From Trypanosoma brucei (taxonomy: Eukaryota), in contig CP000070.1 in the NCBI GenBank assembly GCA_000002445.1, forward strand, positions 640,001 through 704,000: a DNA stretch of 64,000 bases, given 5' to 3'. The notes beneath the pieces are model-generated. The model did no database searches, was not told the DNA's origin, and saw only the letters and a program-made list of their open reading frames with translations. A program made the translations under genes and the position numbers. Shown piece by piece: positions 32,683 to 60,737 of the stretch. Position 1 is the stretch's first letter. The number at the start of each line of letters is the position of its first letter.

Positions 32683-35448
32683 CTACCGACCCTTGACTCG
32701 AGGAGTTGGCCAGTACGTCTCACGCTCGCCGTAGTGCTTCCACAACCCCACTGGCATGGAGCGGTACGATATTTTAGATGTGCTGTTGAGATGCATTTGC
32801 TGCTGGGAGCGAAGAGTTTTCGTGTGGCGGGTCTCATTCATATACTTTGCAGCTGTTACCTCACCTTCAAATTCCTCAAACTTCTCCGTCACACGCCCAC
32901 AGTTGCGGAGATATGCTTCACACTCTTTCTTGGTCATCCCCCTCATCGCTGCATCCTGCTTCACACGCTCAGTCCTTCTCTTTAGCACTTCCAAAGCTGC
33001 CCAGGGTGCGGTGGGTCGCGCAGCAACCGCCTGGCGCATGTACGTGTGCGCTTCCCATTGTGCACGGCGGCCCGCCACGTCGTCACATGCGGCAGAAATC
33101 AGCGATGGGCCGAACTTCTTCCCCGCCTTGTACTCAGCAACTCGGCCGTCTGACTCCTCAGCAAAAAACTTGGTCCCTGATCCTTTTTGAAGGCGCGCGC
33201 GCCAGCGTGCTTCCTTCGCCTGTTCGCGTTTGCTCCTCGGTTTTTGCGTCTCGCGTTGCGCGTACTGGTCAATAAGGTTCAGGAAGCGAGACACACCACC
33301 TTTTGATGAAGCAGGTAGCGTGCGATTTCCACCACCGTTCGTGTTCCCCGCGCCAATTACCGCCGACAGTTCAGTTGTCCTACCCGGAGCTGCACCACCA
33401 TCACCATTGCCTGGCCCATGCCCAACTCCCAACTGTGCACCATGGTTAGCCACATCCACAGGGCCTCCAACATAACTCGTGCCCCCTACTTCTAGATCGA
33501 TTACCTTTCCTTTCAGAGCTGAATCACGATCGAATTCTCGAAGTTGGGCATCAGTTTGATCCGGAGTGCCGTCAACGTAGGTTAACTCAAGTGTTGAAGT
33601 GTCAGGTCGCTCCAAACCGGTGTTTAGTCGGAAGACGCCGTAGGCGCTTGCGTGTCGTTGAAGTGGATGCGCGCGCCGCCATGCAAGGAACCTTTCTCGC
33701 CGCTTTAATTTGGAGTCCCCTCTAGATTTACCAATATGAGGTGCATCATCATCGTTTTGAAAGGTCAGAAGGGGCTCATCGGCCATTGAATCCGATACAG
33801 GAGTCGGTACCGCCTCAACGGTGCCTTCCTCATCACAGTCTAACGAAAGAACGAACTTCCGCTCCTTTGCAGATGGTTTTGTATGAAGTGGAGGCTGAGG
33901 TGGGGGATGCGGGGATGCAGTCGAGGGCACTAAACTAAGCCCTGGTGCCTTAGCGTCCTTTCCAGCCACTTCCCTCGCGCTTCTGGTAGATTCAAAATAA
34001 GCCTTCGCCATCCGCGCCTCTAAGCATCGAGCTTCACGAATTCTCTCCTCCTCCTTTTCGAGTCCTAGCCGCATCTCAGCATCCGCTTTGGCTTTAAGAA
34101 TTTTTCGAAGTCTGTCACCAGGAATAAGTCCAGAAGTTTCAGCAATAAGTCCTCGCAGCATTTCAATATTAGTCCCATCATTTGCAGAGGTAGGAATAAT
34201 AAACGGAAACACCTTGCGATACTTTCGGCGATTCTTGGTGATGACACTGTAAATCTGCCGCATGACAGAGCACACGCGCGAATGGGGCACGGAATCGCAT
34301 TTCGTTAACACGACAAAAAACACTCCATGAAGATTTTCCAACCATGTAAAGTAACGCAAATCCACCTTAGTAAGTCCTCGTTCGCAGTCAATGCAGAGCA
34401 GAAGCGTATTCACCGAACGTCTCACACCGAGATACGCATCTGTCAACTCAATTGCCTTATCACGCCACTGCTCAGACATCCCCTCCAGACCAAACCCCGG
34501 AACATCAACAAAAGTGAGTTGAAGGCCTCCACCCGGTAACTTCACGAGACCGTTACCCTTCACGTTTAGATACCGCTGCATCTGCTCTGGGGAAACGCTC
34601 TGATAGAAGGAAAGTTTCCGCGTCGTGTTGGGTGTGCTGCTTGTCTTCGCTACTTGTTGACCGAGGAGCGCATTCAACAGGCTCGACTTCCCAGCGCAAG
34701 CCTTGCCAACAAGGACAATTTCCTGATACAAGTCGTTGATCTCAAAGAAAAAGGTATGCTGATCGTAAAGAGTGGTCCGGCGTCGCCCACACCTCCGCTG
34801 CTCCACAGAGGTAGCTGTCGAATGCCCTGCGGAACCGCCTTCTTCATCGTCGCGATACATACCTGCCTGCTTAACCAAAGAATAATGTTGCCCCAACATC
34901 ACCTTATTCCCTAGGCTTATAGCCTCTTCTGTTATCCTCCCGAAACTAAGAGGCGGAGCCGGTACTAATTTGCCGTTGTATGTGTAGTCCGAAGGATCCG
35001 GGTGAGTCACTTGATAAAGTACACGTCGCCGCTTCTCAACAAGCCGTTCCCGGGCCTCCTTAAAGGCGTCAGTCACCAAATCGATAACGTCAGTGCCTAT
35101 ACCCCGAGTTGCCGGGTGATGCTCACCAAACTTCATACGTTTACCAGCGGCAGACACTTCTTGCAATTGTCGTCCGTGAGAAGGATCCAAAACAATGTCG
35201 TCGTCTGTGGTGTCTGGAACAGTGCAAAGTACATCGCTGGCGCAGCCACTATCGGCATCCATAAGAGCAAGTCGTGCGCCATTCGGATCCCTTCGTTTGG
35301 AGGATGCCAGAAGCGCGTCACCATCCATCACCTTCCTTGTGTCTGACTGCTGTTGCGTGTAGCGAGGTCGGCTGCGCAGCGGCATTCGGCCTAAGAGATC
35401 GAATGCAGCGGATGGACCGCACCGCCGTAGTGGAGTTAGCCATGGCAT
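32683..35448 (-). CDS. EngB/YihA (YsxC)-type ribosome-biogenesis GTPase domain protein with a roughly 600-aa C-terminal extension. Probably mitochondrial.
   Basis: 921 aa. G1 is 'LVGKACAGKSSLLNALLG', compared with EngB 'GRSNVGKSSLINAL'. G3 is 'FVDVPGFG'. G4 'VLTKCDSV' is the NKxD-equivalent TKxD. This fold and motif order are typical of the EngB family. The extension is Ala/Gly/Pro/Lys-rich. Confidence 0.75.
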   Translation of the reverse strand: MPWLTPLRRCGPSAAFDLLGRMPLRSRPRYTQQQSDTRKVMDGDALLASSKRRDPNGARLALMDADSGCASDVLCTVPDTTDDDIVLDPSHGRQLQEVSAAGKRMKFGEHHPATRGIGTDVIDLVTDAFKEARERLVEKRRRVLYQVTHPDPSDYTYNGKLVPAPPLSFGRITEEAISLGNKVMLGQHYSLVKQAGMYRDDEEGGSAGHSTATSVEQRRCGRRRTTLYDQHTFFFEINDLYQEIVLVGKACAGKSSLLNALLGQQVAKTSSTPNTTRKLSFYQSVSPEQMQRYLNVKGNGLVKLPGGGLQLTFVDVPGFGLEGMSEQWRDKAIELTDAYLGVRRSVNTLLLCIDCERGLTKVDLRYFTWLENLHGVFFVVLTKCDSVPHSRVCSVMRQIYSVITKNRRKYRKVFPFIIPTSANDGTNIEMLRGLIAETSGLIPGDRLRKILKAKADAEMRLGLEKEEERIREARCLEARMAKAYFESTRSAREVAGKDAKAPGLSLVPSTASPHPPPQPPLHTKPSAKERKFVLSLDCDEEGTVEAVPTPVSDSMADEPLLTFQNDDDAPHIGKSRGDSKLKRRERFLAWRRAHPLQRHASAYGVFRLNTGLERPDTSTLELTYVDGTPDQTDAQLREFDRDSALKGKVIDLEVGGTSYVGGPVDVANHGAQLGVGHGPGNGDGGAAPGRTTELSAVIGAGNTNGGGNRTLPASSKGGVSRFLNLIDQYAQRETQKPRSKREQAKEARWRARLQKGSGTKFFAEESDGRVAEYKAGKKFGPSLISAACDDVAGRRAQWEAHTYMRQAVAARPTAPWAALEVLKRRTERVKQDAAMRGMTKKECEAYLRNCGRVTEKFEEFEGEVTAAKYMNETRHTKTLRSQQQMHLNSTSKISYRSMPVGLWKHYGERETYWPTPRVKGR

Positions 35449-36955
35449 GCAACTTTACGTTTGTGCAAAAGTGCAATTGTAGGGAGGAGAGAGAAGGCAA
35501 AACGAAAAGAAAGTGCGCAATAACAATGAATGAAGCGACTCGACACTGCAAAATGGGGTTGTCCCTGCTATAAACAAGCAACCACACATGTCATGAGGTC
35601 AATTTAACAACCAAGGCGAAAAGAGCAGCAAAAACCTTCTTCCTCTCCTTTCTGCATTTGACGGCTTTTTCAAATGAAAATAAATGCGTTAAAAAAACAA
35701 CAAATCGGTTTACTAAAGCCCTACACATACAACATCTTTTGATTTGGCGAATCTTTATTTCCTCTTATTCCTTTCTTTGACTTTCCCTACAACAAATAAC
35801 AAACATATCGATAGTAGTAAAACAGCTTTTCATAATCTTTAAAATGTACTAGATCCTCCCTCCAACAGGTACAAACATCATTTACTTTTTTTCTGCTTCT
35901 TTCTTAATCAAGATGAACCTCCGGGTTTCTACACCCGCCGGAATCGAAAAAAAAAATGACAATAATAGTCAGTGCATGACACTGAGAGTCACAATAAGCC
36001 TGTTCGTTCGCTTTCGATTCCCCTCACGCCCTCAACACTTCCACAGTTTTGCTCTTCCGTCGCCGTCTCACACAATAGTGGGAAAAGGAGCGTGATACTG
36101 AAATGGTCAAGAATAATACAGGTAAACAAATAATATAGATACCGTGCGTTCGATCAACACACACACAAAAAAAAAATATATATATATATATATATAACCT
36201 GTGGCAAAAAAAAAATAATAATAAGCGGCTGCAGCGTAGCATCCGTTGGGACCACAACCTTGCACCTACCTTTCGAATGGAATGGCAGCGGGGTGGCCAC
36301 ACTAACTTTCACCTGAGGTTGTAGAAAAAGGGAATGAAGGAGAGTGGGGACAGTTAGGGAAGCCCCCATAATCCCTCATGATAGATTGAAATTACTTGTG
36401 ACGCGACCAGGGGACTAGAGTGACACGGACGTACAAGTATAGAGATCCCCAAACAACACCTCTCAAAATCCCACTGCATATCTCCTCTGGTTGAGTGAAG
36501 AGCTTTTCAACCCCCTCTACCTCAACCATCACGTGACACCGCTTTTCACAGCGGGAGCGGCACTCTCATCCGTATAACATTGATGCCTTCCCCCCACGTA
36601 GTGCATCTGCACTTCTTTGACCGTAACTACGCGGCACGACAGCAGTGCCAAATTACATATGGTTTCAAGCACATGCCACAAAGTAAATAACAAAATCATC
36701 GACGCGTGTTTTGCCTGTATCGTCGCCGTGGTTATCGTAAACTCACGCCCTCCACCTCCGTAAATACATGATCCCATTCTCATCTCAGTTATTTATGTCT
36801 CCCCCGCCCTCAATAACATGTTGGTTCTTCAATTAAGAGACAAAAACAAAAAGTTCATCACATGAAATACACCCTCCTTAACGTAATTAACCTCATACAT
36901 AAAACGAAAGGATATATTTGGCGATGAAAAACTGAACATGGAGCGTAATACGATC

Positions 36956-38338
36956 CTATTTGTCGGCCTCCCGCGCACGGACCCTGATATAGTGAAGAAC
37001 GGTCTGCAGGTCATGCTTCAGCAGCATCAACTCCGAATTTTCGCGTTCGTACTTCTCGCGAGCCTCCGATAGTTCTCCTCTGCTGCTATCGACAGCCACA
37101 TGCTGCTTCTTCAGCGTTTCCAATGTCTCCCGAGAAGCGTGCTTTTGATCAGTCAACAAACGCTTTAACCCTTCAATGTCTCCATTCAACTCCTTCATCT
37201 CATTATTTAAGGCATACCGCTGTTGCACCAACTTACTTTCCATGTCAGCCACGCGTGCCTCACGAATGTCTCTTTCCTTCGTCGTGGTCAACAACTGATC
37301 CTTCACGTGAGTACCACGGCGTAAATGGAACAACTGATCCTTCTGCAGTTGCCGTAGACGTTCACGTTCTCCCTTCGTAGCCTCAATTTCAGCCTTCATC
37401 CCATTAAATATTTCAGCTTTTGCCTTGTCACGAGAGTCGGTGGTAGCGTTCACCTTCACCTCGTGGGCACGATATAAGTCTTGGGCAACACGATTACTTG
37501 AATCAAATGATGCTCTGGCATCCTTCAGACGAGATGGCAAGTCTTTGACATTTACACGCCACCACTCAGGAAGGTCCGTCTCGTTCCTTGCGATGTATCG
37601 TTGGCGCTCTTTCGTCCAGCAGGCTTGTAAATATGAATTCTCCACTGCTGCCTCCAGCTCCTCCACCTCCCGTTCCACATCACCGTCGTAGTAAGAGGAT
37701 ATATCACCAAGATCAATCTGAAGCAATGCGCGCTTCCTGTCATCCTCCAGTTGCTCAGCTTCTCGTCGGAGTTCGATGATATCTTCGTATATGTTCAGGT
37801 TTGGCTGCATCTCTTTCTCATATGCTTCGAATTCCCTCAGCTCCTTCTGCAGCCGAATAATAATCTGCTCCTCGGTTTCTTCCACTTCTTCTTGGGGCAG
37901 CGACTCAGCCGCACTCGAGCACCCCACATTATTGACGTCACCTTCATCCGTTCGCGGGGCCTCCTCCCCCAAAAGTTCACCATTAAGATCCCTTTCCCCT
38001 TCGATTTCATTGCACTGGGGGATGACTTCGACTAACTTCTCAGAAAAGAAATTTGCCTGGTCCTCAGATGCGGCATCACCCAACTCATCGGCGGCAGCTT
38101 CAGTCGCCGTTTCCGCTAGTCCTGACATAGCTCCTGCTGCCAATCCTTCAGCGTCTCCTCCTGCCAGTCCTCCGAGAGCAGCACTTTCCGCCTCATCCTT
38201 CGCCACACCCGTTGATGCGCCCTCACGCAGGCTCGCCAACTTACTCCCAGGTGAGACGGCGGCGTTGGAGCCCGGGCTCCGTGCATTCTTTGCGGAAGAC
38301 AGTGCAGTGGTGCTCATTGCCTCAGACTTTCTTCCCAC
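36956..38338 (-). CDS. Coiled-coil protein, paralogue A of a tandem pair. Has an acidic Ala/Gly/Glu-rich N-terminal region.
   Basis: 460 aa. The first 33 aa 'MGRKSEAMSTTALSSAKNARSPGSNAAVSPGSK' are identical to the downstream paralogue. Long shared blocks follow: 'EEQIIIRL', 'QIDLGDISSYYDGDVEREVEELEAAVENSYLQACWTKERQRYIARNETDLPEWWRV', 'NRVAQDLYRAHEVKVNATTDSRDKAKAE' and 'VLHYIRVRAREA'. The remainder is heptad-rich E/K/R/L sequence. Confidence 0.8.
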   Translation of the reverse strand: MGRKSEAMSTTALSSAKNARSPGSNAAVSPGSKLASLREGASTGVAKDEAESAALGGLAGGDAEGLAAGAMSGLAETATEAAADELGDAASEDQANFFSEKLVEVIPQCNEIEGERDLNGELLGEEAPRTDEGDVNNVGCSSAAESLPQEEVEETEEQIIIRLQKELREFEAYEKEMQPNLNIYEDIIELRREAEQLEDDRKRALLQIDLGDISSYYDGDVEREVEELEAAVENSYLQACWTKERQRYIARNETDLPEWWRVNVKDLPSRLKDARASFDSSNRVAQDLYRAHEVKVNATTDSRDKAKAEIFNGMKAEIEATKGERERLRQLQKDQLFHLRRGTHVKDQLLTTTKERDIREARVADMESKLVQQRYALNNEMKELNGDIEGLKRLLTDQKHASRETLETLKKQHVAVDSSRGELSEAREKYERENSELMLLKHDLQTVLHYIRVRAREADK

Positions 38339-38975
38339 TTCCTTTAAACACAGTCTATTGCCTTTGCGCTACACCAGTCTTAGTTAGGTATGTGCAATGA
38401 TATCGTAGCCCCCAGTGCGTATCTGGTTTTGCAGTTGAGGGGTCGTTCTCGCTTAGTTGTATTGTTCGCTTGTTAATTGGTCACTTATCACTTTCTAACA
38501 TTGATAAATGGAACCCCAATGGTGAAGCAGTGTGGTACCAGTAAACAAACAACAGAAAAGAGTTGAAAGAAAAGAGGTAACGGAAATTAAAGGGGGAAAA
38601 ACAGAAACATAGAAGGAGACCCCCAAAAAGGGAAGCAGCAAATAACTGCAGCAAACGGACAGGCAGGTGCTAGACAGGCAAGCACCTCCCTCCTCTGGAG
38701 ACGGTTCAACATGGATCACTTACACACATTTTTCCTCTTCGACTTTATCACGCTCAATTCGTTTTGTGCTTTTTCCAGGGGTATAAAGGAAAGGAAAACA
38801 CAAGAAGTGCAGTGTCATCTGAAATTGTCAATATGAAATGAAATCAAAACAACAAAACAAAAAAGAAAGGTAAAGTAAAAGGCAAAGTAAGAAAAAAGAA
38901 AAAAGAAAGAAAAGTGAAGAGAGAGAGAGAAAACGGAACCTTTTTCTTTTTCATTCGGCACTACTCGTAATTCCA
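36956..38975. repeat. Tandem segmental duplication, copy 1. The coiled-coil gene plus its 5' flank.
   Basis: 38212..38975 is essentially identical to 42243..43005 at a constant offset of 4031 bp, about 760 bp. This spans the first roughly 40 codons and the upstream region. The plus-strand ORFs 38212..38400 versus 42207..42431 and 38495..38719 versus 42526..42750 translate identically. 37425..37780 is near-identical to 41204..41560 at offset 3779. The 3' ends of the two genes and their downstream flanks are diverged. Confidence 0.9.
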
Positions 38976-40734
38976 AGTTCAGCTCCGTTTCCCGCCTAAC
39001 CTCGCTCCACTTGAGCACACTAATAAGCCTTTCCCCTCCTTTTACTTTTCCTTGTTGCTGTTGCTTTTTCGTAGTACATTTGTTAACGTTGTTGCTAACC
39101 TCAATCCCTTTTTTCAAAAGTTTTTTCTGTATAATTTTATTCTTTCGCTATTTTACTTATTTCTTCTTGTTTTCATTGAGTTTTCTGTTATTATGGTTTT
39201 CAGCTCGCTTGTTTGCGCCATCCATCCTCAGTTAGTTACTATTTCTTCACCTTTTATTTTCCCTTCCAGAGACGCAAACAGAAAAAAAACCTCACCCGCA
39301 ATTGCAACTACTGGAGTTGGGATGATTCTTAGTGGTGACAACGGTGGCAGTAACAGAAACCAAGGTAAAAATTTAAAAAGTTTTAATGCACCAGGGAGAA
39401 AACTGTCGGGAATTTCCCCTTGCATTCCTCCTCACTCTTCCCCTACGCAAGCAACAAGAGGAAGAAAAGGGGCAATAATAAAAAAAAGAGAAAGCAGGAC
39501 ATGTGGATAATGATCGAATTCAAAGGAGGGGGAAAGAGAGGAAAAAAGAGGAAAAAAAGAGAGGCAGAGAAAATAGATAACGAAACAAATGGGCAAGACG
39601 GAGTTTGCGGATCCAATTGTAATTCGTTATTTTTTCCCATATTATCTCTTGCCGCAGCCTTAACACTAAACTGCGTATCTGCGTATGCGACGGCACATCT
39701 TATGTTCCCTTTCTTTTTCACACACCCCACACACACACACACGCATGCATACGCGTCTCATTCCACCATAGTTCCGCCTTCCCATACGCGTACACAACCC
39801 AGCGACAGCTCCAAATAGGCAACCTCAAACCTCTCATTACAAACTCGGATTACAAAAGAAAAAAAACAGCGAAAGCAGTCACAAGGACGGTTTCCCGCTT
39901 CCTTTAGCCTCTGTTTGCTTTCTTTCATTCATTCACTTCAAGTCTGCATTTGTCGTACTTTAGTATTGAGTTCGTTCGGTTCCTCTGCTTCGTTGTACAT
40001 GTGAAGAAAGGAACCTACACAAGAACAGGGTTGGAGCCGGTGAAGTAGAAAATTTTTGACAGCAACGGGGGCAAAAAAAAGACGAAAAGGGGGGGAAAAA
40101 GTACAACGACACGCTCCTCAACCACACGTAAGCGGCAGGAACGGGGCAATAACGAGTAAAAAGAAAAAAAGAAAATTGAAACGCCGCACCGCAACGGCCC
40201 TCACACAGAAAAACAATATTTGCCTGTAACCGGTAACCCCCTCACATCTTCACTTACCTCCTTCCATCACCTCCTCCCCTCCATCAGCCAACCACACGCA
40301 TGCCCCACGTAGAGGCGAGAAGAGAGGGACTGAAAGTCCCAACAGTAACAATAATAATGATGGAGAGAAAGGAGAGTAAACAGAAGCGTAATATAACAAA
40401 ACGACAAAAGGGCGATTGTGCACTCCATATGGGGTTCACTTAAGCAATTACGTACACAAGACTTATGTACAAATCATACACTTTTATTTACTGCTTTCAC
40501 AGACCTCATACACCTCCCCCCCCCCCTTCCTCTTCGAGTGCCTTCCTTGACAAAACAGTCTCACTACCCACAAACTTTAAATACATAAACCTTAAAATAT
40601 TAATGCGGTTAGCATAAAGACATGGCCCTTCGCCCCCCACAACACTTGCAATGAAGAAAGGTCCGCATCCATACACACACACACATATATATACGTACAT
40701 AAAGATACCCGTTGCAGGTGTGAGCGGGCGTACC

Positions 40735-42369
40735 TCAGTAGTTGGCTTCACGAGCACGGACACGGATGTAGTGAAGAACGCACTGCAGCTCGTGCTTGAG
40801 CGACATCAAGTCTGAATTCTCCTCCTCGTAATCTTGTCGCGCTTTTCGAACCTCTTCTCCACTTCTTGTGACATCCAACAAATGCTTCCGTAGCTCTTGA
40901 ACGATACTCTCGCCACTGACTTTCGCATCCTTCAGCTCGCGCCGCAACTGAATGAGTTCCATCTCAAGGTCTTTGACTGTACGTTTCAGCTCCACAGAAG
41001 CACCAAAGTGCCTATTCTCCTCACCCACAACTCGGGCCTCCAGAGCATCCTGACGCCTTTTCGACGTCACCTGCAGCTCCTTCACGTGAGTACCACGGCG
41101 TAAGTGGAAACGTTGTTCCTTGTCTATAACCAACAGACGTTCCCGCCGCTGACGCAGCTCGTTCAACTCCGCAGCGATCTCTTGCCGCAGTTCAGCTTTT
41201 GCCTTGTCACGAGAGTCGGTGGTAGCGTTCACCTTCACCTCGTGGGCACGATATAAGTCTTGGGCAACACGATTACTTGAATCAAATGACCTTTTGGCCT
41301 CCCTCAAACGAAATCCCAACTTCATGATATCCACACGCCACCACTCAGGAAGGTCCGTCTCGTTCCTTGCGATGTATCGTTGGCGCTCTTTCGTCCAGCA
41401 GGCTTGTAAATATGAATTCTCCACTGCTGCCTCCAGCTCCTCCACCTCCCGTTCCACATCACCGTCGTAGTAAGAGGATATATCACCAAGATCAATCTGA
41501 AGCAATGCGCGCTTCCTGTCATCCTCCAGTTGCTCAGCTTCTCGTCGGAGTTCGATGACCTCTTCGTACATGTTCAGGTTTGGCTGCATCTCCTCCTCAT
41601 ATGCTTCGAATTCCCTCAGCTCCTCCCGCAGCCGAATAATAATCTGCTCCTCGGTTTCTTCCTCTTCTTCTGGAGCACCCGACGATGGCTGGCGGTCTGA
41701 CCTCCTGCTGCTGTCAAAAAAGTTCTCCCCATGCGCATCAACATCACTCTCACTGAGTTCAAATTCATCGGCACCCCCCTGCCTCCGCTCACTCCTTCTT
41801 CCGCTTTTTGCTTTACTCCTCAATTCACTTGTTACCTCACTTCCCAATTCGCTCCATTCTCCATCACCATCGTCCCGCACACCATACCTCGCCTCGACGC
41901 TTCGCCCACTTTTCCCCGCACTCCTCATCTCGCTGTCGCGCACGCTTTTCCTGTCACTTTTGAGTTCACTTTGTGGTGAAAGCTCGCGAGTGCTTTTCCG
42001 GTCACTTTTGAGTTCGCTGTGTGATATTTCGCGCATACTCTTCCGATCACTTTTGAGTTCACTTTGTGGTGAAACTCCACTCATGCTTTTCCGATCACTT
42101 TTGAGTTCACTTTGTGGTGAAAGCTCGCGAGTGCTTTTCCGGTCACTTTTGAGTTCGCTGTGTGATATTTCGCGCATACTCTTCCGATCACTTTTGAGTT
42201 CACTTTGTGGTGAAAGCTCGCGAGTGCTTTTCCGGTCACTCCTTAATGCGCCCTCACGCAGGCTCACCGACTTACTCCCAGGTGAGACGGCGGCGTTGGA
42301 GCCCGGGCTCCGTGCATTCTTTGCGGAAGACAGTGCAGTGGTGCTCATTGCCTCAGACTTTCTTCCCAC
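40735..42369 (-). CDS. Coiled-coil protein, paralogue B of a tandem pair. Carries about seven copies of a 15-aa basic Ser/Arg/Lys repeat.
   Basis: 544 aa. Same N-terminus and conserved blocks as paralogue A. Residues about 41–147 are imperfect repeats 'LKSDRKS(T/M)RE(L/I)S(P/H)(Q/S)(S/E)E', encoded by 45-bp tandem units at about 41930..42250. Confidence 0.8.
   Translation of the reverse strand: MGRKSEAMSTTALSSAKNARSPGSNAAVSPGSKSVSLREGALRSDRKSTRELSPQSELKSDRKSMREISHSELKSDRKSTRELSPQSELKSDRKSMSGVSPQSELKSDRKSMREISHSELKSDRKSTRELSPQSELKSDRKSVRDSEMRSAGKSGRSVEARYGVRDDGDGEWSELGSEVTSELRSKAKSGRRSERRQGGADEFELSESDVDAHGENFFDSSRRSDRQPSSGAPEEEEETEEQIIIRLREELREFEAYEEEMQPNLNMYEEVIELRREAEQLEDDRKRALLQIDLGDISSYYDGDVEREVEELEAAVENSYLQACWTKERQRYIARNETDLPEWWRVDIMKLGFRLREAKRSFDSSNRVAQDLYRAHEVKVNATTDSRDKAKAELRQEIAAELNELRQRRERLLVIDKEQRFHLRRGTHVKELQVTSKRRQDALEARVVGEENRHFGASVELKRTVKDLEMELIQLRRELKDAKVSGESIVQELRKHLLDVTRSGEEVRKARQDYEEENSDLMSLKHELQCVLHYIRVRAREANY
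41930..42250. repeat. Coding 45-bp tandem repeat array (about 7 units, organised as 90-bp double units) inside paralogue B.
   Basis: The plus strand shows a repeated 'cgagtgcttttccggtcacttttgagttcgctgtgtgatatttcgcgcatactcttccgatcacttttgagttcactttgtggtgaaa' motif. On the minus strand it encodes the SELKSDRKS(M/T)RE(I/L)S units. Paralogue A lacks the array, which accounts for the 84-aa length difference. Confidence 0.85.
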
Positions 42370-42989
42370 TTCCTTTAAACACAGTCTATTGCCTTTGCGC
42401 TACACCAGTCTTAGTTAGGTATGTGCAATGATATCGTAGCCCCCAGTGCGTATCTGGTTTTGCAGTTGAGGGGTCGTTCTCGCTTAGTTGTATTGTTCGC
42501 TTGTTAATTGGTCACTTATCACTTTCTAACATTGATAAATGGAACCCCAATGGTGAAGCAGTGTGGTACCAGTAAACAAACAACAGAAAAGAGTTGAAAG
42601 AAAAGAGGTAACGGAAATTAAAGGGGGAAAAACAGAAACATAGAAGGAGACCCCCAAAAAGGGAAGCAGCAAATAACTGCAGCAAACGGACAGGCAGGTG
42701 CTAGACAGGCAAGCACCTCCCTCCTCTGGAGACGGTTCAACATGGATCACTTACACACATTTTTCCTCTTCGACTTTATCACGCTCAATTCGTTTTGTGC
42801 TTTTTCCAGGGGTATAAAGGAAAGGAAAACACAAGAAGTGCAGTGTCATCTGAAATTGTCAATATGAAATGAAATCAAAACAACAAAACAAAAAAGAAAG
42901 GTAAAGTAAAAGGCAAAGTAAGAAAAAAGAAAAAAGAAAGAAAAGTGAAGAGAGAGAGAGAAAACGGAACCTTTTTCTTTTTCATTCGG

Positions 42990-45900
42990 CACTACTCGTA
43001 ATTCCTCTTTACATTTTTTCTCCCATGTGGTTCTTTGTTTTCCTCTCTGTTGTCATTATTACCGCCGTCCACCGCGTGTATGAGTGCGTTTCTCGTTGTC
43101 ACCCTTTTTTTTTTCTCTCCTATGCCCTCTCAACTTCACCTTTACTTTATTCATTCACATAAATCATTCTTCCATTGAGTCATCGCCACTTCCCTCATTA
43201 TTAACGTGCATCAATTGCTCATTCCCATCCTCCTTGATTGAAGCGTGATAAGCAGGGAAAAGAAGAGACATGGTAGTTTTTTTATGACGGCATTAACAAC
43301 AACGGCGGTGGACAGGGGTGGAGGGATAAAACGACAAAAAAGTGTCAGTTAAAAAAAAAATCCTTATTCCTAGCATGTTTTTTTTTCTCTTTTTCTTATT
43401 TTCTCTCTCCTTTCGTTTTCTTTTTCCTCAGTCATTTTACTACCGTATGTCCGAGTATATATATGTGTGTGTGTGTGTGAAGGAGTGAAGGGGTGAAGGG
43501 ATGAGGGGGTGAAGGAGTGAAGGGGCGAAGGGAACCAAGGTTTTCATTTCATTTTTTCCCCTCCCCCTTAGAAGTTTCAAAGGAAGCAAATGAAAGAAAA
43601 GAAAGGGGGGAAATGAGGGACTGCAGAGGGAGGAAAATGCATTACTATAGTCGCGTCCTCTCATTCTCTTTTCCCACAATTTCCCCCCTCCCCTCTTCCT
43701 TAAGAACTCCTTGTACTCCTCTTATCATCATTGTTAGTGCACACGTGCGTTTGCGTGTGAATATATATATATATATATATTCATTTATTTATTTATTTAT
43801 TCTTTCATTTCTTTCACACACACACACACAAGCACAAGCACAAGCACATTTATACTCATACATACACAATTTTATTATTTACCTTACCACTTCCACAACA
43901 GAAAGCCATACGTAGTGACAGACGATCTTTTCTCCTTTTTCCCTTCTCTCGCATCTCTTCCTTAGTAAACAAAACAATATTTTCTCCTAATTCCACGCGT
44001 ATGCGCATATGTTATTGTTGTTGCTCGCATTCATCTTTTATCTTTTATCTTTTATCTTTTATTATATATATATATATATATATATATTTCCTCATTGTAC
44101 TTTATTCAACTCTGAGGTGTTCTGCATCGTTTGTTATCCCTTTTTGCGCCCTTTCATTTATTTATTAGCTGTTTTTTTCATTTTTTTTTTCTTTTCGTTT
44201 TCCCCCTTGTTATTCCTTCCTCAGCACAACCTTAACGTTCTGTAACAATTTCGGCTAAAGAAGGGGGAAAAAAAACAGGGGGCCCTCAACCACACATTAC
44301 GGGATGATAATCAAATCAGCAAAAGTGTTAATGGAGTGTGGTGGGGGTGGTAAAAGCGCTGTAGCGGCTGAGAAACGGAAGTTATGAAAACAACCAATAA
44401 AAAAAGGGGGAAAAGGAAGATAGCCGTAGAGAACGGGCTGCTTCAACTGTTTTACATTTCCTTCAAAAATATGTCATCCATCCTCTGCCTCAGCATTTTA
44501 AAAAAAAAAAACGATATCATTACATATTTTTTTTTAAATACCTTTCGTTGCCTTGCATTTGCATTAGTGCCGTCCACTCAATTTATTTTCCTTTTTCCTT
44601 CCGGTGCGCCTTTGTTTTCATCTCCTTTAAGTTTTTTTTCTTTTCCTTTGGTTCCTTCAGATTCAACCCTTTATTTTTATTTTTATTCCTATTTTCTTTC
44701 CCCTCCACGGTGGCGCAAAAGATATATCATTAATTAAATTTATTTATTTACTTATTTTCGTCTTCCCTTTGCATCAGCATAAAAATATATTTAGTCAGCA
44801 CAAACAAAAGTGGTAGGAACATATCAAATTAAACGAAACAAAAGAAGGAGAAGGGGAAACCACACACAAACACACACAAAAATACGCAACAAAACAAAAC
44901 ATAATAAAACATAATAAAACAAAAGCAAAATTCCTCAAAAACCGCATAAACAAAAATAACAACAAGAATAAGTGATATTGCATGTATTTCCCCTTTTGTG
45001 TTTATTTCTCTCTTCTTGTTTTTGTTTCCTTTACTTTTTTCCCTGCATTTACTCCCATACACGTACACACGTATACGCATACGTATTCATGGAAATATAA
45101 TATAATATAATATATATATATATATAAACACATTCATACATTCGTGTGTGGCGATGATGATTGGTACCCATAACAATAATACTAACATAAATAGGTAAGC
45201 AAAAATAAAAAGGCGTTGCGTGTCTAACGCCGTAAGGAATATAAAAAAAAAAAGAAAGAAAGAGAATGAAAAGGGGGAAAGGGGGAAAGGGGGAAAGGAA
45301 GGGGGAAAACAAAAAAGACATTTTTTTCCCCCTCCTCCTCCCGTCCCTCCCTCTTTTCAAGAAGGAATACATTTATAAACACACGGAAGGTAAACAAAAC
45401 AAAGAAGAGGGAAAAAGAAAAATAGCATCAATAAAGTAATTAGATGAGAAGGTGTTCGGAGGTTGTTGTTTTTTTCTTGTTAAAGGGAGAAATAACAAAA
45501 ATAGTTAAAATAGTTAAAATGATTAAAATAATAAAGATAATAAAGATAATAAAAATAACAACTGAAATATAAATTAAAACAATTCATAATAACAATAATG
45601 GTAATAAAATCACCACATTCATACTCATATTCATGACAGTTAACTTTCCCTTCCGTTTTCTTATTCATTCTTTTTTTTTTCAATTATCTCATTCCTTTTC
45701 CAGTCCTTTTTGTTCATACTCTCCCTTCCGTCGCTCATGTAACAAACTACTGACAATAATAACAATAATAATGATAATAATAACCTCCAAAAAGAAAAAA
45801 AACAACTCATAATAATGAAAAAAATGATAACAATTCATACAACGAATTAAATATTTCAAGTGATAAATCGAGAATGCTACAAAATATATAAATAAAGTCC

Positions 45901-47887
45901 CCATCGTAGAAAAAAAAACGAAAAAGAGGGGGTGAAAGCACACATTGGGATATAGAATAATGTAACAATTACAATCGTAACAAAAATAAAGATAATAATA
46001 ACAATAACAATAACAACAAAAATAATAAAATAACCGGTAAAAAAAAAAACACACACACACACATAAAATAAAGATAAAAAAATGAATAACAATTCCGAAA
46101 TACTTCAAAAGTTCTTCTTGTTCCCGTTTTTCTTTTTTTTTCTTGACAAACACCGCTTACCTTCACCTTTACCGCAACGAAAACATCAACTAAAATAAAA
46201 ATAAACTAAAAACTAAAAAACGCACCTTCATATAAATTTATCCATACCAGATGTACATTAACCATAACACAAATAAAAATAAAAAGCAAAACTAAGAGAG
46301 TGAGTTAGCAAGTAAATAAAACAATAAAAACAAAAATAATGATAATAACAATAAATTTAAGTGAAGTTGAGGGGAGAACGAAAGCACAAATAAAAAACAA
46401 AAACGAAGAAGCAAAAGGAAAAAAGGTAAAAAGAAAAATAAAAGGAAGGTAAGAGGAGAAGCGTGAAGGAAAGGAGAAAAGGGAAAAGGAAAAGGGGGGT
46501 GCAAAAACGGCGAAAATGCACCTCTTTTTATTTTATTTTTCCCCCCCCCCTTAAAAAACAGCTTAAAATAAAACTATCACCGCAATGACAGTATGTTGTG
46601 TTTTTGTTTTTGTTTCGTTTTGTTTTTTCCCCCTCCTTTCTTTTTTTTTGTATTTTTATCACTTTTTTTTTTTGGTCTTCCCTGATCCTTTTCAAAGCTC
46701 TAAGACATTTACCGGAAGGAAGATGATGCAAAGCAGTAAAATAAAATAAGAGATGACTCCAAATGAAAATAACACCAAGCAAACAAAAAACAAAACAAAA
46801 GGGTAAACAAGAGGAGAGAGCATTCTGATTGGGAAGGTGATCATAAAAACGAAACACAAAAAAATATATACGAGAGGTGGAAATAAATAAAACTAAACAA
46901 AAAAAAAAGCAAAAGTAAAAATAAAATAACTTTCATTTTGGGGATGGGGGGAAGTGCATTATAACAAAAATAGAAAATAAAAAAAGAAAAAAAATATTTT
47001 CAATAATAATAATGAGAGAAAGAGAAGAGAAGAAAAGAAAAGAAAAGAAAAGAGAGAGAGGAGAAAAAAAAACCTTCAGTCCCTCCCCTCTTCATCTTCT
47101 TTCCTTCTCCCAATTGTCTCCTCTTGATAAATCCCATTTTATAACCTCTCACCACCCTTTCCTTTTCTCTCACCCTCTCATTTATTTGTTTCCCTTTTAT
47201 TATTTTGTTTTGTCTCTTGTCTTATCACTGTTATTATCATTATTATTATTATTTATTTTTGGCTCTGTGCCGCCCCTATCCCTTTTTCATTTCAAAGAAA
47301 AATGTTATAATTAATGACGTAAGGTAATATGAACATGTAAGCTAAAAGAAAAAAAATCCGCCTCACAAACGGTTACACTGCTTCTTGCTTTTTTTCTTTT
47401 TTTTTTCTTATCTCGCCTTCCTTCATTACCACGAACAATAAAATAGATTTCAGTCCATTTTCCTTTAATTTTTTCCTGTCACGCTTAGGGCGCCAAAGGT
47501 GCATTTTCTTTCTTTCACTGTTCTGTCCCTCCCTTTTTCTTTCCTTTTTTTATTTGCTCAGAACGCAGTCTGTGTTACTCCTTTTCCTTCAGCACATGTA
47601 TCGAATTTTCCACTTGATCCGTTACATTCTGTTTCACTTCGTTTCCTCACCTTACTTCTCTTTTCCTCCTTTCTTCTTCGCTCCCTTTCTTTTTTTTAAA
47701 AAAAAGGGTTATTTCACCCTTCTCCGCGTTAGTTAAACTCTGTTACGCTACTGTTTATCGCACAGTTCCAGTAATTATCTTCACATTTTCCCTTGTTTTC
47801 CTCTGCGATGTAGCTCCGCACGCTAAATCATAATACAAGCTCCCTACTGCTTGCGTGTGCGCGTACACATACACATACAAATACAAA
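42990..47887 (-). promoter_or_regulatory. Gene-free low-complexity interval of about 4.9 kb downstream of ZC3H-like gene A. Presumed long 3'UTR, intergenic polypyrimidine and trans-splice/polyadenylation region, and 5'UTR of coiled-coil paralogue B.
   Basis: The plus strand is strongly purine/A-rich, for example 'gggggaaagggggaaagggggaaaggaagggggaaaac' at about 45285. The transcribed minus strand is therefore pyrimidine/U-rich. The only ORFs are low-complexity artefacts. Comparable intervals follow gene B (49166..53073) and gene C (54565..60737). Confidence 0.5.
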
Positions 47888-49165
47888 TTAATTCCTGCCC
47901 CTCCCTTCCCCTTTTTCAATACCACGATCGGTACCATTGGTTCCATAAGGGTTGTAATGCCAGCGCTCCCGACCACCTTTACCGTTTCGAGTCACCACCA
48001 CAATGTTTGGTGTCATGCCGCAACCCTGCTCAGCCAAGCAATCACCAGATGTGCTGGGATCGACGTCGAGCGATAAGTTGTCCGAAGGAAAGAACGTACT
48101 CGAGACCTGGCGCATGTGAATGTCACTTACCTGCCGTGAAAGCGAAAAAGGGATATGCGCCTGTCCACAGTCCACAACGGAATGAGCTTCGGTGCAGGAG
48201 CTGGGATCGCAGCATCTCACAACTGCGGGTTGAGTAGTAACGGAGGCATCTCCAAGTGTCACGCTGCGATTGGCCCCAAACAGCGAACCTGTTGGGCTTC
48301 CGGGACACGTCCAGCCACCCGAGACGGGAGTCGGTGCATCGCAGGCAGCCGCTGCTGCAGGTGGAGGTGGCATAGAGGTACCGGAGGCAGTCACGACAAA
48401 ACAACCGCCGGAAGGTGAGGAGGAAGGAGGTTTCTTCCATGAACGCGGGCGCTGACCCAGTGTGAGGCCCCGATCACACCTCGCCACTTCCTTGCAGATG
48501 TGGAGGTAATTGCACTCCTCCGCGTAGCGGCAGCGATCCTGCACGTGTAGGCGGCAGAGCGTAATATCACCAGCCTCCAGCACAAGGCACGATGGGGGAG
48601 TGCCGAATGCACGACTTTCCCACTGAGCCCCATCTTGTCCCTCCGCTTGGGGTGTGGAATGAAAAAGAGCGTCCAGCAACCGCGAAATGGGAGTGGTGTA
48701 ACTGAAACGGGCGAGTGGAATGTAGCCGCCTCCGTAGGTCGCATCCGGGACGTGAACCACAACGCGCGACATCCATGATCGGTTATCCAGGGCATTGACG
48801 TAATCACGGTCCCCATGCAGCGCACAGCATATGGGTAGATAGTCCACTTGACTTCGAAGCGCAGCCACAACATTCAGCGCAGCATGCACCTGATGGCACT
48901 GTGTACCCTGCCGGCAGCGCCCATCCAGGAACAGCAAGCAAAGGCTCGGGATTGTCGTGCGTTGGTGCGCCCGGGTGGGGTACACGCAACTGAGTGGGAT
49001 CCGTAATTTGCGCGTGGCGGGATCCACAACGACCATGCACTCAACACCTTTTTCAAAACACATGATATCCCTCCTGGTTTCGAGTGGCGAGGCTACGAGC
49101 TGCATAATTGTACCTTCGGTTGTATCTAAGGTCACCTTCACAGTCTTATTCGTTGCTCTTTGCAC
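47888..49165 (-). CDS. ZC3H20: Tandem CCCH zinc-finger RNA-binding protein, ZC3H20-like (gene A of the ZC3H20/21/22 cluster).
   Basis: 425 aa. Two C-x7-C-x5-C-x3-H fingers: '[19 protein letters not shown]' and '[19 protein letters not shown]'. The inter-finger block is '[64 protein letters not shown]'. The symbol rests on remembered synteny and relative size. It cannot be verified here. Confidence 0.75.
48684..49040. repeat. High-identity tract shared with 54014..54370, a putative gene-conversion tract covering the CCCH inter-finger region of ZC3H-like genes A and B.
   Basis: 48684..48881 is 100% identical to 54014..54211, 198 bp at offset 5330. Only scattered substitutions continue to 49040/54370. 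Sequence immediately below 48684/54014 is unalignable. The listed small ORFs 48874..49056 and 54003..54254 translate to the same peptide. Confidence 0.9.
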
Positions 49166-51446
49166 CTTTTTGGTGCTGGTTGGTGCTTATTGCTGTTTCG
49201 GTCTTTCTCAGGACAACCTACAGTCGGTGGTTCAACCCTATGCTATCCGACGAACTTATGTATTCTTTTTCTTTAGCTTGATTATTTTGGTTGTTCTCTG
49301 CTGTTGGGCTCTTTACTTTTGTAAATTCAAGCGCGTACGCGGCGGAAGCTGTGATTAATCACAACGAGATGGAGATAACGACAATAATAGTGATAATAAC
49401 AAGAGGACGAGAGAAGAAGTGAAATGGGAGCAAGAAGTGTGGCAGTTAAAAGGGGGGAAAGGGGGTAACCAAGACAAATAGAGCTCCAGCGGGTTAGGAA
49501 TCCAGCACCCAACACCTACACAACCCATCGCACAGCTCATTTCACGGATGATGAGGAAAGAAGAAGAAGAGGGAAACAGATAATGAAGAGAAAGTGGGGA
49601 CAAGGCGGCACAAATAACAATGATAAAAAGGCAAAGAGTAAAACATTTGAAACGCCACAAATACATAAATATATGTATAAAGAAATACACATAGTTTAAT
49701 AATAATAATATAAGGAGGTCATAGTACCTAGTCTATCACCACTTCACCAGCAACAGCCACCCACGCGAAATGTTTCAGGAAAACTGTGCACAAAGATCCG
49801 AACACACACATGCATCTGAATGAAGCTGCACACAGTAATATATATATACTTATTTTTTTTCGAAAAAAAAAGGGGAAACGCGCACCTATAAGTATTTGTG
49901 GTGGCGTTTGTGTGTGTTTACTTACCTTTTACCATCGTAACCTCCTCAGAATTCTATTACTCACCTTTCTGTTACCCCACGGGCACCGCGCAACCACTTG
50001 GTGATTATTCTCTCGTAGTCAGTAAGTCATCATTACTTCCGTTACCGCGCAAGAGCGTAAGAAAAAAAGAAAAGGACTTTCCCTCACACTTCCATTCCTT
50101 TCCTTTCCTTTTGGTTCCCTAACATTTCTTCCTTTCTTAATCTCTATTTCGCTTACGCAGATACATAATGCCTTAAATTTCCTTCAAAGCAACCCGATGC
50201 TACAACCAAGTCAAAGTAAGATGTAAAAGAACCAAAAGGCGGTAGACGGGGGACGGGAACTAAGATAGAGAAAGGAAATGAAAATGAAAATGAAAACGGG
50301 AATGGGAATGGGAAGAAAAAAACAAAAAGGGCAGCACAAACAAATAAATAAAAATAAAAAAGATAAAAATAAAGAAACAACCGGTTAAAGAGAGTCGGGT
50401 TTTACCTCCTTTCCTCATTTCTTTTTCAATCGACACGTATGCAAATGCAAGAATGTGCGAATGAAATTGGCCCAAAAGTGCTATCAGAAGCAATATGAAA
50501 ACGAAAAACGGTCCCCGAGTAGAGATAAAACGGAATTACGAACAGGTGGGGAAAAGAGTGCAGAAAAAAAAAATGAACGCGTGTTCATGTGTGTGGATTG
50601 TCCAAAAAAAAAATGACGAAAACACTTCGGCTGGGTTGAGGGAAACAAAAAAGATATATATATATATATATATATAACAATTATAACTATAGTAACTATA
50701 ATGATAGATCATTAATACCTCCGACTGCTGCTGTAATAAAAATAATAACAATAATTATATTGAAATGAAGGCAGCAACGAAGTTGGGCAGGAAGAAAGGG
50801 AAATGGAAGAATGAATTTGAGAGAGAGGAAAAGAAAAGAGAAAGGCAAGCGCAATAAAAGAGACCTGGTAAATATATACATACATTCATATATATATATA
50901 TATTAAAAAATAAAAAAATAACCGGTGCATTGTCGAAACAAATGCCCATTCACTAGTTAAAAAAAATTTAAAACAGCAACAACACGATAGGTACAAAATA
51001 AAACTTAAGAAAAAGATGAAAAAGGAAGAAGGTGTAATGGAGGAAGTCGTCGTAATGACTGAGTGAATGAATAACCGAGGTTTAGAAAAAAAAACATGAA
51101 TGAAACAAACACAACGCACCGACGACTCCCCTAACCGCACATACAAAAAAAACTACAAAGGTAAAGAAGAAGAAAAAAGCTGAAGTTGTACCTAATGAGG
51201 AAATTTTAAAAAATCAGTTAAAACATAATAACTGATAATATTTATATGGAAATCGAAATCCCCCACAAATGGTACATTAATATTACAGGGAAAGGGAATG
51301 GTTTTCAACAAAAAAAAAAAGAAAAAGAAACGCCTCTCTACCGTATTAAACAAGGAACGGGATAACATCACATATGCACACATGTAAAGGCATCTCACCA
51401 CTTTATTGTCACAGCCGACAAACTTATATCCATCTCACTCATTCAC

Positions 51447-51466
51447 TCAGTCAGTCAGTCAGTCAG
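51447..51466. repeat. (TCAG)5 tetranucleotide microsatellite.
   Basis: Direct reading of 'tcagtcagtcagtcagtcag'. Confidence 0.95.
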
Positions 51467-53073
51467 TTAGCCAATCATTCCTTTATTTACTCAACAGCTT
51501 CAAACAAACACGCGTAAAAACACGCGCCCACACATAGGAAATAAAGAAGAAAAAAAAGAAATTCAGTTCGTCCGGAAAAAAAAAACAGGAACACACACCG
51601 TGATCCTGTTACTTCCCATTTTTTCCCCGACTCCAATAGATATTTATTTTCTTTAATATCTCTTGATATCATTTATTTTTTATATTTAATTATCAAAAGG
51701 GTAAAAGAAAAACAAGGAGGAGAAACCATGCGCTACCTCACCCCTCTCCCTTTCCTTCAGTGCCTGGTGGCACTGTTTGACGTTATACAAAAAATATGTT
51801 TTTCACCTCTCTTTATTTTTTGTCCCGCCCCTTCCCAGCTCGCCATACGGGGTACAATTCGATCAATTCAGAAGCACACAGATGGGGAGAAAAAGATGAG
51901 CAGGTGCAAACAATAATAAATTAAACAAATAAAACCGCGCCCTCAAGTCCACAGATACCGAACGAGAAGATTAAAAGGCAAAGACACGCGTATGCTTGTC
52001 AGCCAATTCTTCTTCTTCACTTTTGCAGTAGTTTCGTTCTTATATTAAGATGCCTCACCTGAAGGGGAAACAGATAAACGACAGGATACAACACAATGGG
52101 GAAGAGCAAAATAAAATAAATAGAAATGCAGCACAGTTAAGCATCACACAACTCTAATAATAATAATAATAATAACCATTATACTGCTGTTTCTTCCCAC
52201 CTGTTTCTCCCTCACTCATTCCTATCAAATGTTAAGTTACCTACACATTCCTTTCTTACACATAGAAACAAATGACACATGCCCTTTCACACGTCAGTAA
52301 GTTTCTCCTTTTCTTATATATTTCTCTTCCATACCCTTTTATGTACAGTGAAACGCTTAAATACTTTCTTCTTTCCTTCACTTCTCTTTGCATCTCATTC
52401 ATATGTTTCGCTGCTTCTCTCCTCTCTTCTTTTCTTCGGTTCACTCCGATATCAACGAAGACATCTACCAAGTACAACCCCACAGGACCCGAAATGAGAG
52501 AAAGCACAAATGAAGCGATAGAAGAGGCAGAGTAGGAAGCACAAAAGGTGAGTTCACACCCGCTTCACAAAAATGAAACATTTCTTTTTTTCTTATTTCG
52601 TATTATTCTCTACGACAGTATCCTTTACCCAAAAATTAAAAAAATACATATATATATATATTATTGCATAATAACAATAATATAATCCAAACATAAAAAG
52701 GGAGATTTACGCTCCTTCAACACCCCTCCCCTCCCCTCCTCACCCCTTACCATCATCCAGTAATGTCAGCATATGTACAAATACAACAGTTGTATTAACA
52801 AAAAAAAAGATGACAGCGATGCTAACATAAGTTATTTGCCGCAAGAAGGGAGTAACGAACGCATATAGCCGAGTGACAACAAAAATAACAAAAAAAAAAT
52901 AGAAACAACGTGTTCCCACAAAAAAAAATGAGAAGGAAATATACAAGAGCTATAAGAGAAACATGGAAAAATTATAATAACAAAATAAAATAAAACGGAG
53001 AAAGATGCACTACAAAAGTTATAACCAAATAATAACGAAAGTGGTGGTATGGAAGGGAACTTCTTCACAATGC

Positions 53074-60500: not shown

Positions 60501-60737
60501 ACCGTTATATATATGCGGAAACCATTAAGGGCTAAAGCTCAACGAAAGGACAACTCAATTAGCTATATTCCATTCACGGCCGCCCCCCCCCCCCCACAGG
60601 GTCAGTCGCGTTCACAAGCAAAAGAAATACAAAGGAAAAGGAAAACGAGAAGAGAAAAAGAAAGTACCGACAGCCCTGCGACGCAACCATCCCTATTCCA
60701 ATCGCCATTGTCTTGTTACTTTTTTTCTTTTCTTACC

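Follow-up and report, generated by a model that had tools for sequence, protein, structure and literature searches.

The tandem CAP51 and CAP51V genes of Trypanosoma brucei: a mosaic of identity that points to an old duplication and repeated gene conversion

Gene identity and layout of the locus

We analysed a 64,000-nt stretch of Trypanosoma brucei DNA (the window), in which two neighbouring open reading frames (ORFs) on the minus strand, n = 2, share parts of their sequence in a patchwork. They are CAP51 and CAP51V of T. brucei TREU927, a known pair that Portman & Gull 2014, PLoS One 9:e106777 (PMC4152294), described as neighbours on chromosome 7. The two genes are as follows.

36956..38317, minus strand: CAP51 (Tb927.7.2640) ORF, 453 aa from the ATG, computed mass 50.9 kDa, procyclic-form paralogue; exact match to XP_845887.1/Q57XL0
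40735..42348, minus strand: CAP51V (Tb927.7.2650) ORF, 537 aa, 62.2 kDa, bloodstream-form paralogue; exact match to XP_845888.1/Q57XK9

All of the primers listed in Table S1 of PMC4152294 (17/17) map exactly and at the expected places in the window. The copy-specific CAP51 primers (RNA interference (RNAi), OX, tag and 3′ untranslated region (3′UTR)) match the gene at 36956..38317 only, the CAP-51V primers match 40735..42348 only, and the shared OX forward primer matches the ATG regions of both. Therefore, 36956..38317 is CAP51, the procyclic gene, and 40735..42348 is CAP51V, the bloodstream gene. The preliminary description of this stretch had not recognised the pair as already characterised.

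The window also agrees with the published account, which gives CAP51 a mass of 51 kDa, N-terminal regions of low similarity of ~120 aa in CAP51 versus ~195 aa in CAP51V, and a Lys-rich repeat in CAP51V (PMC4152294); we observed 50.9 kDa, variable regions of 114 and 198 aa, and a 16-aa K/R-containing repeat in CAP51V. The same paper reported 5′UTRs identical over ~200 bp, 3′UTRs without similarity, no Pfam domain, a C-terminal coiled coil predicted by COILS and a family restricted to kinetoplastids.

Both proteins have been localised to the subpellicular corset, CAP51 in procyclic and CAP51V in bloodstream forms. Each tagged protein was detected only in its own stage when the endogenous 3′UTR was retained, RNAi of either gene disorganised the corset and blocked cytokinesis in its own stage, and each protein rescued the loss of the other (PMC4152294). 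Essentiality, too, is established in the literature. CAP51V was also a match in a genome-wide bloodstream RNAi cell-cycle screen, performed by RNA interference target sequencing (RIT-seq; PMC9464253). CAP51 mRNA was found to be ~8x higher in procyclics (PMC2443814). RNA-seq values, in reads per million (RPM), are 470/441 in bloodstream versus 88/85 in procyclic forms for CAP51V, and 158/141 versus 230/224, respectively, for CAP51 (PMC5568443 S4).

Of the 16 ORFs of at least 250 aa in the window, every one but a mirror of the CAP51V gene lies on the minus strand, and this one-strand layout looks like a single polycistronic unit.

Map of identity and divergence between the two copies

We compared the two units by blastn and base by base, and the patchwork of identical and diverged segments claimed in the preliminary description turned out to be real. 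Three pairs of stretches were aligned by blastn: 38206-38974 with 42237-43005 (769 bp, 99.35%), 37412-37899 with 41191-41677 (488 bp, 94.5%) and 36962-37039 with 40741-40818 (78 bp, 79%). The first of these, the 5′ block, consists of the following parts.

38318..38974, minus strand: 5′ block in front of CAP51, 657 bp, the same sequence as 42349-43005
42349..43005, minus strand: 5′ block upstream of CAP51V, the identical copy, 0 mismatches against 38318-38974
38206..38317, minus strand: start of the CAP51 ORF shared with 42237-42348, ~37 codons, of which the first 26 encode identical residues

The two ORFs are also identical over their first 79 bp, which together with the 5′ flank make up a perfect run of 736 bp. 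The five mismatches of the block (38238, 38235, 38214, 38211 and 38209) all lie at its 3′ edge. At the other end identity stops sharply at 38974/43005, and the sequences upstream of these two positions showed no similarity by blastn or in MAFFT windows. The earlier claim of an identical ~760-bp flank plus ~40 codons thus holds for the 736-bp run, whereas the 769-bp block as a whole carries the five differences.

Downstream of the variable N-terminal regions, CAP51 and CAP51V align gap-free across the 305 codons of a conserved domain, which we divided into six segments.

S1, minus strand: 96 bp, 92.7% identity
S2, minus strand: 222 bp, perfect run 37777-37556, 100% identity
S3, 37511..37555, minus strand, partner 41290-41334: 15-codon divergent patch, VNVKDLPSRLKDARA versus VDIMKLGFRLREAKR; 45 bp, 62% identity, synonymous divergence (dS) 0.46, non-synonymous divergence (dN) 0.55
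S4, minus strand: 99 bp, perfect run 37510-37412, 100% identity
S5, minus strand: 372 bp, 48% nucleotide and 35% amino acid identity, dS ~2.4 (saturated), dN 0.73
S6, minus strand: the last 27 codons, 81 bp, 78% identity
S1-S4, 37412..37873, minus strand, partner 41191-41652: homogenised part of the conserved helical domain of CAP51, from the alignment
S5-S6, 36959..37411, minus strand, partner 40738-41190: unconverted C-terminal third of CAP51, 42% amino acid identity, dS saturated

The contrast along the domain is sharp: dS is 0 across the 321 bp of coding sequence in S2 and S4, versus ~2.4 in S5. The patch S3 sits between the two perfect runs and is paralogue-specific in TREU927 and in two further assemblies of the T. 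brucei group, T. b. equiperdum IVM-t1 and T. b. gambiense DAL972. At the domain-average mismatch rate the longest clean run, 226 bp without a mismatch, has P ~5e-30, which confirms the mosaic.

Two further details of the earlier picture needed correction. An internal near-identical block is present, but it measures 488 bp at 94.5% instead of 350 bp and has the divergent S3 embedded in it; likewise, the C-terminal part is diverged as described, over ~151 codons and not 100. The low-complexity N-terminal regions have indeed diverged to the point that no alignment between the copies was obtained, and the 3′ flanks retain no residual similarity by blastn or in MAFFT windows.

Variable N-terminal regions and protein architecture

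The regions between the shared start and the conserved domain differ in length and in composition.

37874..38215, minus strand: CAP51 variable N-terminal region (aa 35-148), 114 aa, A/G/E-rich, net charge -25, pI 4.05
41653..42246, minus strand: CAP51V variable N-terminal region (aa 35-232), 198 aa, S/R/K/E/D-rich, net charge -1
41936..42240, minus strand: CAP51V tandem repeat, 48-bp unit x 6.5 (higher-order 141 bp x 2.1), 16-aa units of the type SELKSDRKS(T/M)RE(L/I)S(PQ/H)

The two proteins had been contrasted as acidic and basic in this region. CAP51 is strongly acidic as stated, but CAP51V is close to neutral overall: a mildly basic character (+8 per 100 aa) is confined to its 16-aa repeats, and the remainder of its variable region is acidic. 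No significant alignment was found between the variable regions of CAP51 and CAP51V, nor between those of T. brucei and T. vivax. In IVM-t1, CAP51V apparently has one 48-bp (16-aa) unit fewer than in TREU927, as judged from offset alignments of 41936-42240 in the window with 9132-9391 of the IVM-t1 locus. This suggests a repeat-number polymorphism in CAP51V, if the IVM-t1 hybrid assembly is right there.

An AlphaFold2 (AF2) model of the conserved domain has four long helices, at residues 2-54, 64-97, 109-185 and 194-302, with a mean predicted local distance difference test (pLDDT) score of 78. The modelled helices, together with the COILS prediction (PMC4152294), are in keeping with the earlier designation of the pair as coiled-coil proteins. 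The motif RRGTHVK (CAP51 37298-37318, CAP51V 41077-41097) does not vary among T. brucei, T. congolense and T. vivax, and in Leishmaniinae it is mostly retained (RGT). It lies inside the fast-diverging S5, in the sole long non-helical break of the model (residues 186-193, between helices 3 and 4).

Pfam searches with CAP51 and CAP51V gave nothing above cut-off, and an Rfam search of the whole window gave no match. An older ‘Sec34-like’ label for Tb927.7.2640 comes from PMC2443814, which itself denies true COG3 orthology. A COG3/Sec34 identity of this gene is not supported here either: Pfam COG3_N scored 11.1 bits (E = 0.38), well short of the 27.9-bit cut-off, and the likeness amounts to a weak similarity of the CAP51 helical stretch to COG3_N.

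Processing signals, untranslated regions and stage control

A scan for polypyrimidine tracts followed by AG placed two tracts in the 5′ block of CAP51, at 38940-38846 and 38645-38543. The first AG past the second tract, at 38496, is the predicted splice acceptor and would give a 5′UTR of ~177 nt. The preliminary description had expected identical processing signals and 5′UTRs for the two genes, and this fits: both tracts fall inside the identical block, and the predicted length of the 5′UTR is near the published ~200 bp (PMC4152294). As the identical block holds the tracts and the predicted acceptor, both mRNAs should share their trans-splicing, their 5′UTR and the codons for the first 26 residues.

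Genes within a trypanosome polycistron are regulated after transcription. With the same polycistron and the same 5′ block, the opposite stage profiles must stem from the parts that differ, namely the 3′UTRs and parts of the ORF. The two 3′ regions are as follows.

35449..36955, minus strand: CAP51 3′ flank/3′UTR region, no relation to its CAP51V counterpart; two UA(U)6 motifs, at 36217 and 36178
38975..40734, minus strand: CAP51V 3′ flank/3′UTR region, unique sequence, 0 UA(U)6 motifs; several internal polypyrimidine tracts, e.g. 39564-39522

The published CAP-51 ‘3′UTR full length’ primer (PMC4152294) maps to 35386-35405. It appears that stage specificity most probably resides in these unconverted, unrelated 3′UTRs. 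The stage specificity kept by genes tagged with their endogenous 3′UTRs (PMC4152294) agrees with control by the 3′UTR, although it is no proof.

UA(U)6, the RBP10 motif, is thus found twice in the 3′ flank of CAP51 and not in that of CAP51V. On RBP10 RNAi, the input RPM of CAP51 rose from 143/168 to 224/227, ~1.45x (PMC5568443 S4). In the table of selected targets of the RBP10 paper, CAP51 was not found. Repression of CAP51 in bloodstream forms through RBP10 and UA(U)6 may be considered a weak lead.

Family members, segment trees and the tandem pair of T. vivax

An exhaustive profile search returned 49 family proteins at E<=1e-3, the named ones being from T. congolense, T. vivax, T. theileri, T. 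conorhini, Leptomonas and Leishmania. By these matches the family is restricted to kinetoplastids. We built neighbour-joining (NJ) trees of the segments with bootstraps and outgroups, and also counted site patterns; S5-S6 comprises 151 aa.

The trees of the two parts of the domain disagreed. For S1-S4, CAP51 and CAP51V were sisters (100%), joined next by T. congolense and then by T. vivax. For S5-S6, CAP51 grouped with T. congolense (81-92%) and CAP51V with T. vivax (95-99%). The exclusively shared residues numbered 15 for CAP51 and T. congolense (13 of them absent from the outgroups), 17 for CAP51V and T. vivax, and 8 for CAP51 and CAP51V.

Looking for one or two copies in other Trypanosoma species, as had been proposed, we observed two in T. 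vivax and one in T. theileri. The T. vivax genes (422 and 396 aa) form a tandem pair of their own, present in two independent assemblies (GCA_021307395.1 locus 6386-8408, 9641-11585). The two copies agree at 99% over ~360 bp of 5′ flank and 34 codons, and their N-terminal regions are unrelated. They agree again, at 98.6%, over the conserved domain and 394 bp of 3′ flank, except for a short divergent patch at 7684-7733. The 422-aa copy was seen in the DNA of the locus and was absent from the protein-search matches. T. theileri has a single copy at the syntenic place, in a locus with N gaps. One copy each has been reported for L. major and T. cruzi (PMC4152294). A second T. congolense member was not found by protein search, the databases holding one T. 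congolense protein.

Strain variants in the 5′ blocks

We compared the two 5′ blocks of TREU927 with those of IVM-t1. At 38552, 38412, 38334 and a (TC)2 indel, the two TREU927 blocks agree with each other and differ from the two IVM-t1 blocks, which likewise agree; in total, three substitutions and two indels behave as strain-shared in this way. The DAL972 assembly carries the IVM-t1 states and that of T. equiperdum OVI the TREU927 states, each in the one block available, and thus both haplotypes exist. The edges of identity in S1 also differ among strains. These patterns are signs that conversion may still be operating in T. brucei.

Origin of the mosaic

A simple explanation for near-identical neighbours would be an assembly artefact, in which a single gene has been duplicated or mis-joined in the reference, and two assemblies might seem to speak for it. 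In DAL972 (FN554970.1), a 100-N gap lies 67 bp inside the CAP51 5′ block (retrieved locus 9310-9409); beyond it come kinesin and NPR2-like genes on the other strand that do not match the window, so that CAP51V is missing and the gene order is broken. Since the gap falls inside the repeat and unrelated sequence follows, the missing CAP51V is an assembly problem. In OVI (CZPT02000825.1, retrieved locus 3076-4311), the contig switches back and forth between parts of CAP51 and parts of CAP51V, joined by runs of 10 N, and is scrambled over the paralogous blocks, yet sequence unique to each copy is present. The published work used copy-specific primers, resolved separate two-dimensional gel spots, tagged each gene separately at its endogenous locus and obtained copy-specific RNAi phenotypes, so that the two paralogues are told apart in localisation and detection (PMC4152294); CAP51V was found independently by RIT-seq (PMC9464253); and IVM-t1 holds both genes and both unique 3′ flanks, collinear and in a gap-free stretch. 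We therefore reject a duplication created by assembly, for which next to no probability remains. For annotators the locus carries a warning, as short-read and whole-genome shotgun (WGS) assemblies break or scramble here. Separately, the 312-aa OVI model TEOVI_000556400 joins pieces of both genes in a chimera, and the adjoining 75- and 147-aa models are fragments.

Two origins of the patchwork had been offered in the preliminary description: gene conversion that acted repeatedly on parts of the genes, or a recent duplication in which segments were later replaced. According to the latter, the tandem duplication took place in the T. brucei lineage, the identical parts are original, and the N-terminal region, C-terminal third and 3′ flank of one copy diverged fast or were replaced. 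The perfect match between the 5′ blocks and within the internal runs is what such an event would leave, and L. major, T. cruzi and T. theileri are single-copy, with one T. congolense protein in the databases. However, S5 is saturated in dS while the runs flanking it have dS = 0, and in S5-S6 13 derived residues are common to CAP51 and T. congolense, with CAP51V falling beside T. vivax. In addition, T. vivax has its own tandem pair of the same layout, strain-specific variants are common to both 5′ blocks, and no donor for a replacement segment was found within the window. A recent duplication is thus improbable, and we reject it on the dS contrast, the segment trees, the T. vivax pair and the strain-shared variants. 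It could also be argued that purifying selection on shared trans-splicing, polyadenylation and 5′UTR signals keeps the 5′ block identical without any recombination. The block does contain the two long polypyrimidine tracts and the predicted 5′UTR, and T. vivax also keeps an identical 5′ flank of ~360 bp. Yet trypanosome processing signals are degenerate, and here 657 bp of non-coding sequence with 0 differences continue into coding sequence with identical synonymous sites. Moreover, the block varies between strains while being identical within a strain, a pattern that selection alone cannot yield. We consider this explanation very unlikely, even more so than a recent duplication.

Taken together, the discordance of the segment trees, the T. 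vivax pair and the strain-shared variants argue that the duplication is old and that the identical blocks are conversion tracts. We consider it highly probable that the CAP51/CAP51V locus arose by an old tandem duplication followed by repeated gene conversion, and that stage control is post-transcriptional, most probably via the 3′UTRs. The duplication would predate at least the split of T. brucei and T. congolense, and probably the whole salivarian radiation. Non-reciprocal conversion between the neighbours would have acted repeatedly on the 5′ flank together with the first ~30 codons, and on two separate stretches within the conserved domain, and so kept these three parts alike. Three others would have escaped it: the low-complexity regions near the N-terminus, the patch of 15 codons, and the C-terminal third along with all of the 3′ flank. 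Conversion presumably halts at the non-alignable N-terminal and the diverged C-terminal/3′ parts because heterology blocks it (compare the ‘structural heterogeneity’ of Jackson). In this way CAP51 and CAP51V would share their trans-splicing signals and 5′UTR, with their opposite mRNA and protein levels set post-transcriptionally by the parts that differ. We infer conversion as the mechanism, the 3′UTR as the determinant and the positions of the splice sites; of the two origins first proposed, partial gene conversion is the one favoured by dS 0 against saturation, the discordant trees, the T. vivax pair and the strain-shared variants.

Several points weigh against this interpretation. The sharing of variants within a strain rests on IVM-t1, a low-coverage PacBio plus MiSeq hybrid that was Pilon-polished and ordered on TREU927, where multi-mapped reads or polishing may make the two 5′ blocks look alike. 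DAL972 has its 100-N gap at the place of CAP51V, and the OVI contig is scrambled. The segment trees concern 151 aa of fast-evolving helical sequence and are NJ only; whether their root falls before or after T. vivax split off is less certain than the grouping within the quartet. A second T. congolense copy is so far a prediction. The 3′UTRs are a probable, not a proven, seat of stage specificity; the RBP10 motif contrast is just 2 versus 0, and the rise of CAP51 mRNA on RBP10 RNAi just ~1.45x.

A wider scenario can be put forward tentatively, and we regard it as somewhat doubtful. The duplication may have occurred before the salivarian trypanosomes diverged, in their common ancestor, and the feature preserved since then may be a pair of proteins differing mainly in the N-terminal low-complexity module. 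T. brucei would then be special in that its C-terminal third and 3′ flank remain unconverted, leading to unrelated 3′UTRs and opposite regulation. T. vivax has no midgut procyclic stage. If the scenario is true, the extent of the conversion tracts would track the evolution of stage-specific regulation, with T. vivax still homogenising the whole domain plus 394 bp of 3′ flank. In T. brucei, the locus offers a clean natural experiment on where in a gene stage-specific control resides: the two copies have the same 5′ processing region and 5′UTR and differ only in the 3′UTR and parts of the ORF.

Neighbouring genes and other features of the window

Downstream, the pair is followed by a GTPase of 921 aa (MMR_HSR1); PMC2443814 lists Tb927.7.2630 as ‘Hsr1/GTP-binding’. 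The upstream neighbours are CCCH zinc-finger ORFs, and Tb927.7.2680 is ZC3H22. Two of these ORFs (47888-49165 and 53074-54564, minus strand; ZC3H20 and ZC3H21 by position) are a second mosaic paralogue pair in the window: they share a 347-bp block (48684-49030 and 54014-54360) of 96% identity within otherwise diverged ORFs.

Between CAP51V and the next upstream ORF, ~4.9 kb (43006-47887) are without an ORF of at least 250 aa and contain much low-complexity A/T-rich and microsatellite sequence; the stretch is collinear in IVM-t1. It is presumably a very long 3′UTR or the intergenic region of the ZC3H20-like gene. UA(U)6 motifs number 36 on the minus strand of the window versus 13 on the plus strand. 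Two gene-free stretches on the minus strand, 49166-53073 downstream of the ZC3H21-like ORF and 54565-60737 downstream of the ZC3H22-like ORF, contain 5 and 10 of them, respectively, and the count of 5 in 49166-53073 equals the published number for the ZC3H21 3′UTR.

On the plus strand, antisense ORFs at 37776-38387 (203 aa) and 41555-42418 (287 aa) mirror the low-complexity N-terminal coding regions. As genes they are unsupported, and they are probably a by-product of codon composition.

Comparison with known systems

The gene pair and most of its anatomy were already published in 2014, and mosaic concerted evolution of tandem duplicates in T. brucei has been known since 2007. The account in PMC4152294 covers the same locus, with its divergent N-terminal region, identical 5′UTR, unrelated 3′UTRs and coiled-coil domain. 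It gives ~200 bp of identical 5′UTR, whereas we observed identity over 657 bp upstream of the ATG, and it leaves aside the sharp mosaic inside the genes, gene conversion, how old the duplication is and the tandem pair in T. vivax. What is new here is modest and incremental: the exact map of tracts, and the indications of a duplication older than the T. brucei/T. congolense split, of continuing conversion and of a T. vivax pair with a different conversion pattern. As gene conversion is common in T. brucei tandem arrays (PMC1855330, PMC2854126), the significance beyond the trypanosome field is small.

With its one paralogue for each life-cycle stage, the pair resembles the cytoskeletal pairs CAP5.5/CAP5.5V, CAP15/CAP17 and FLA1/FLA2 of T. 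brucei, likewise paralogues of equal function, among which the bloodstream copy often has an extra insert (reviewed in PMC4152294). In its evolution it resembles the tandem arrays of T. brucei (Jackson 2007, PMC1855330; Jackson et al. 2010, PMC2854126), where homogenised stretches likewise lie beside diverged ones and coding sequences and UTRs have separate histories. The main text of PMC1855330 contains no Tb927.7.26xx identifiers. In those arrays, copies with remodelled flanks escape conversion and keep orthology with other species, as here. The surveys dealt with arrays of >3 copies (per PMC2854126), whereas CAP51/CAP51V is an array of two genes with opposite stage specificity.

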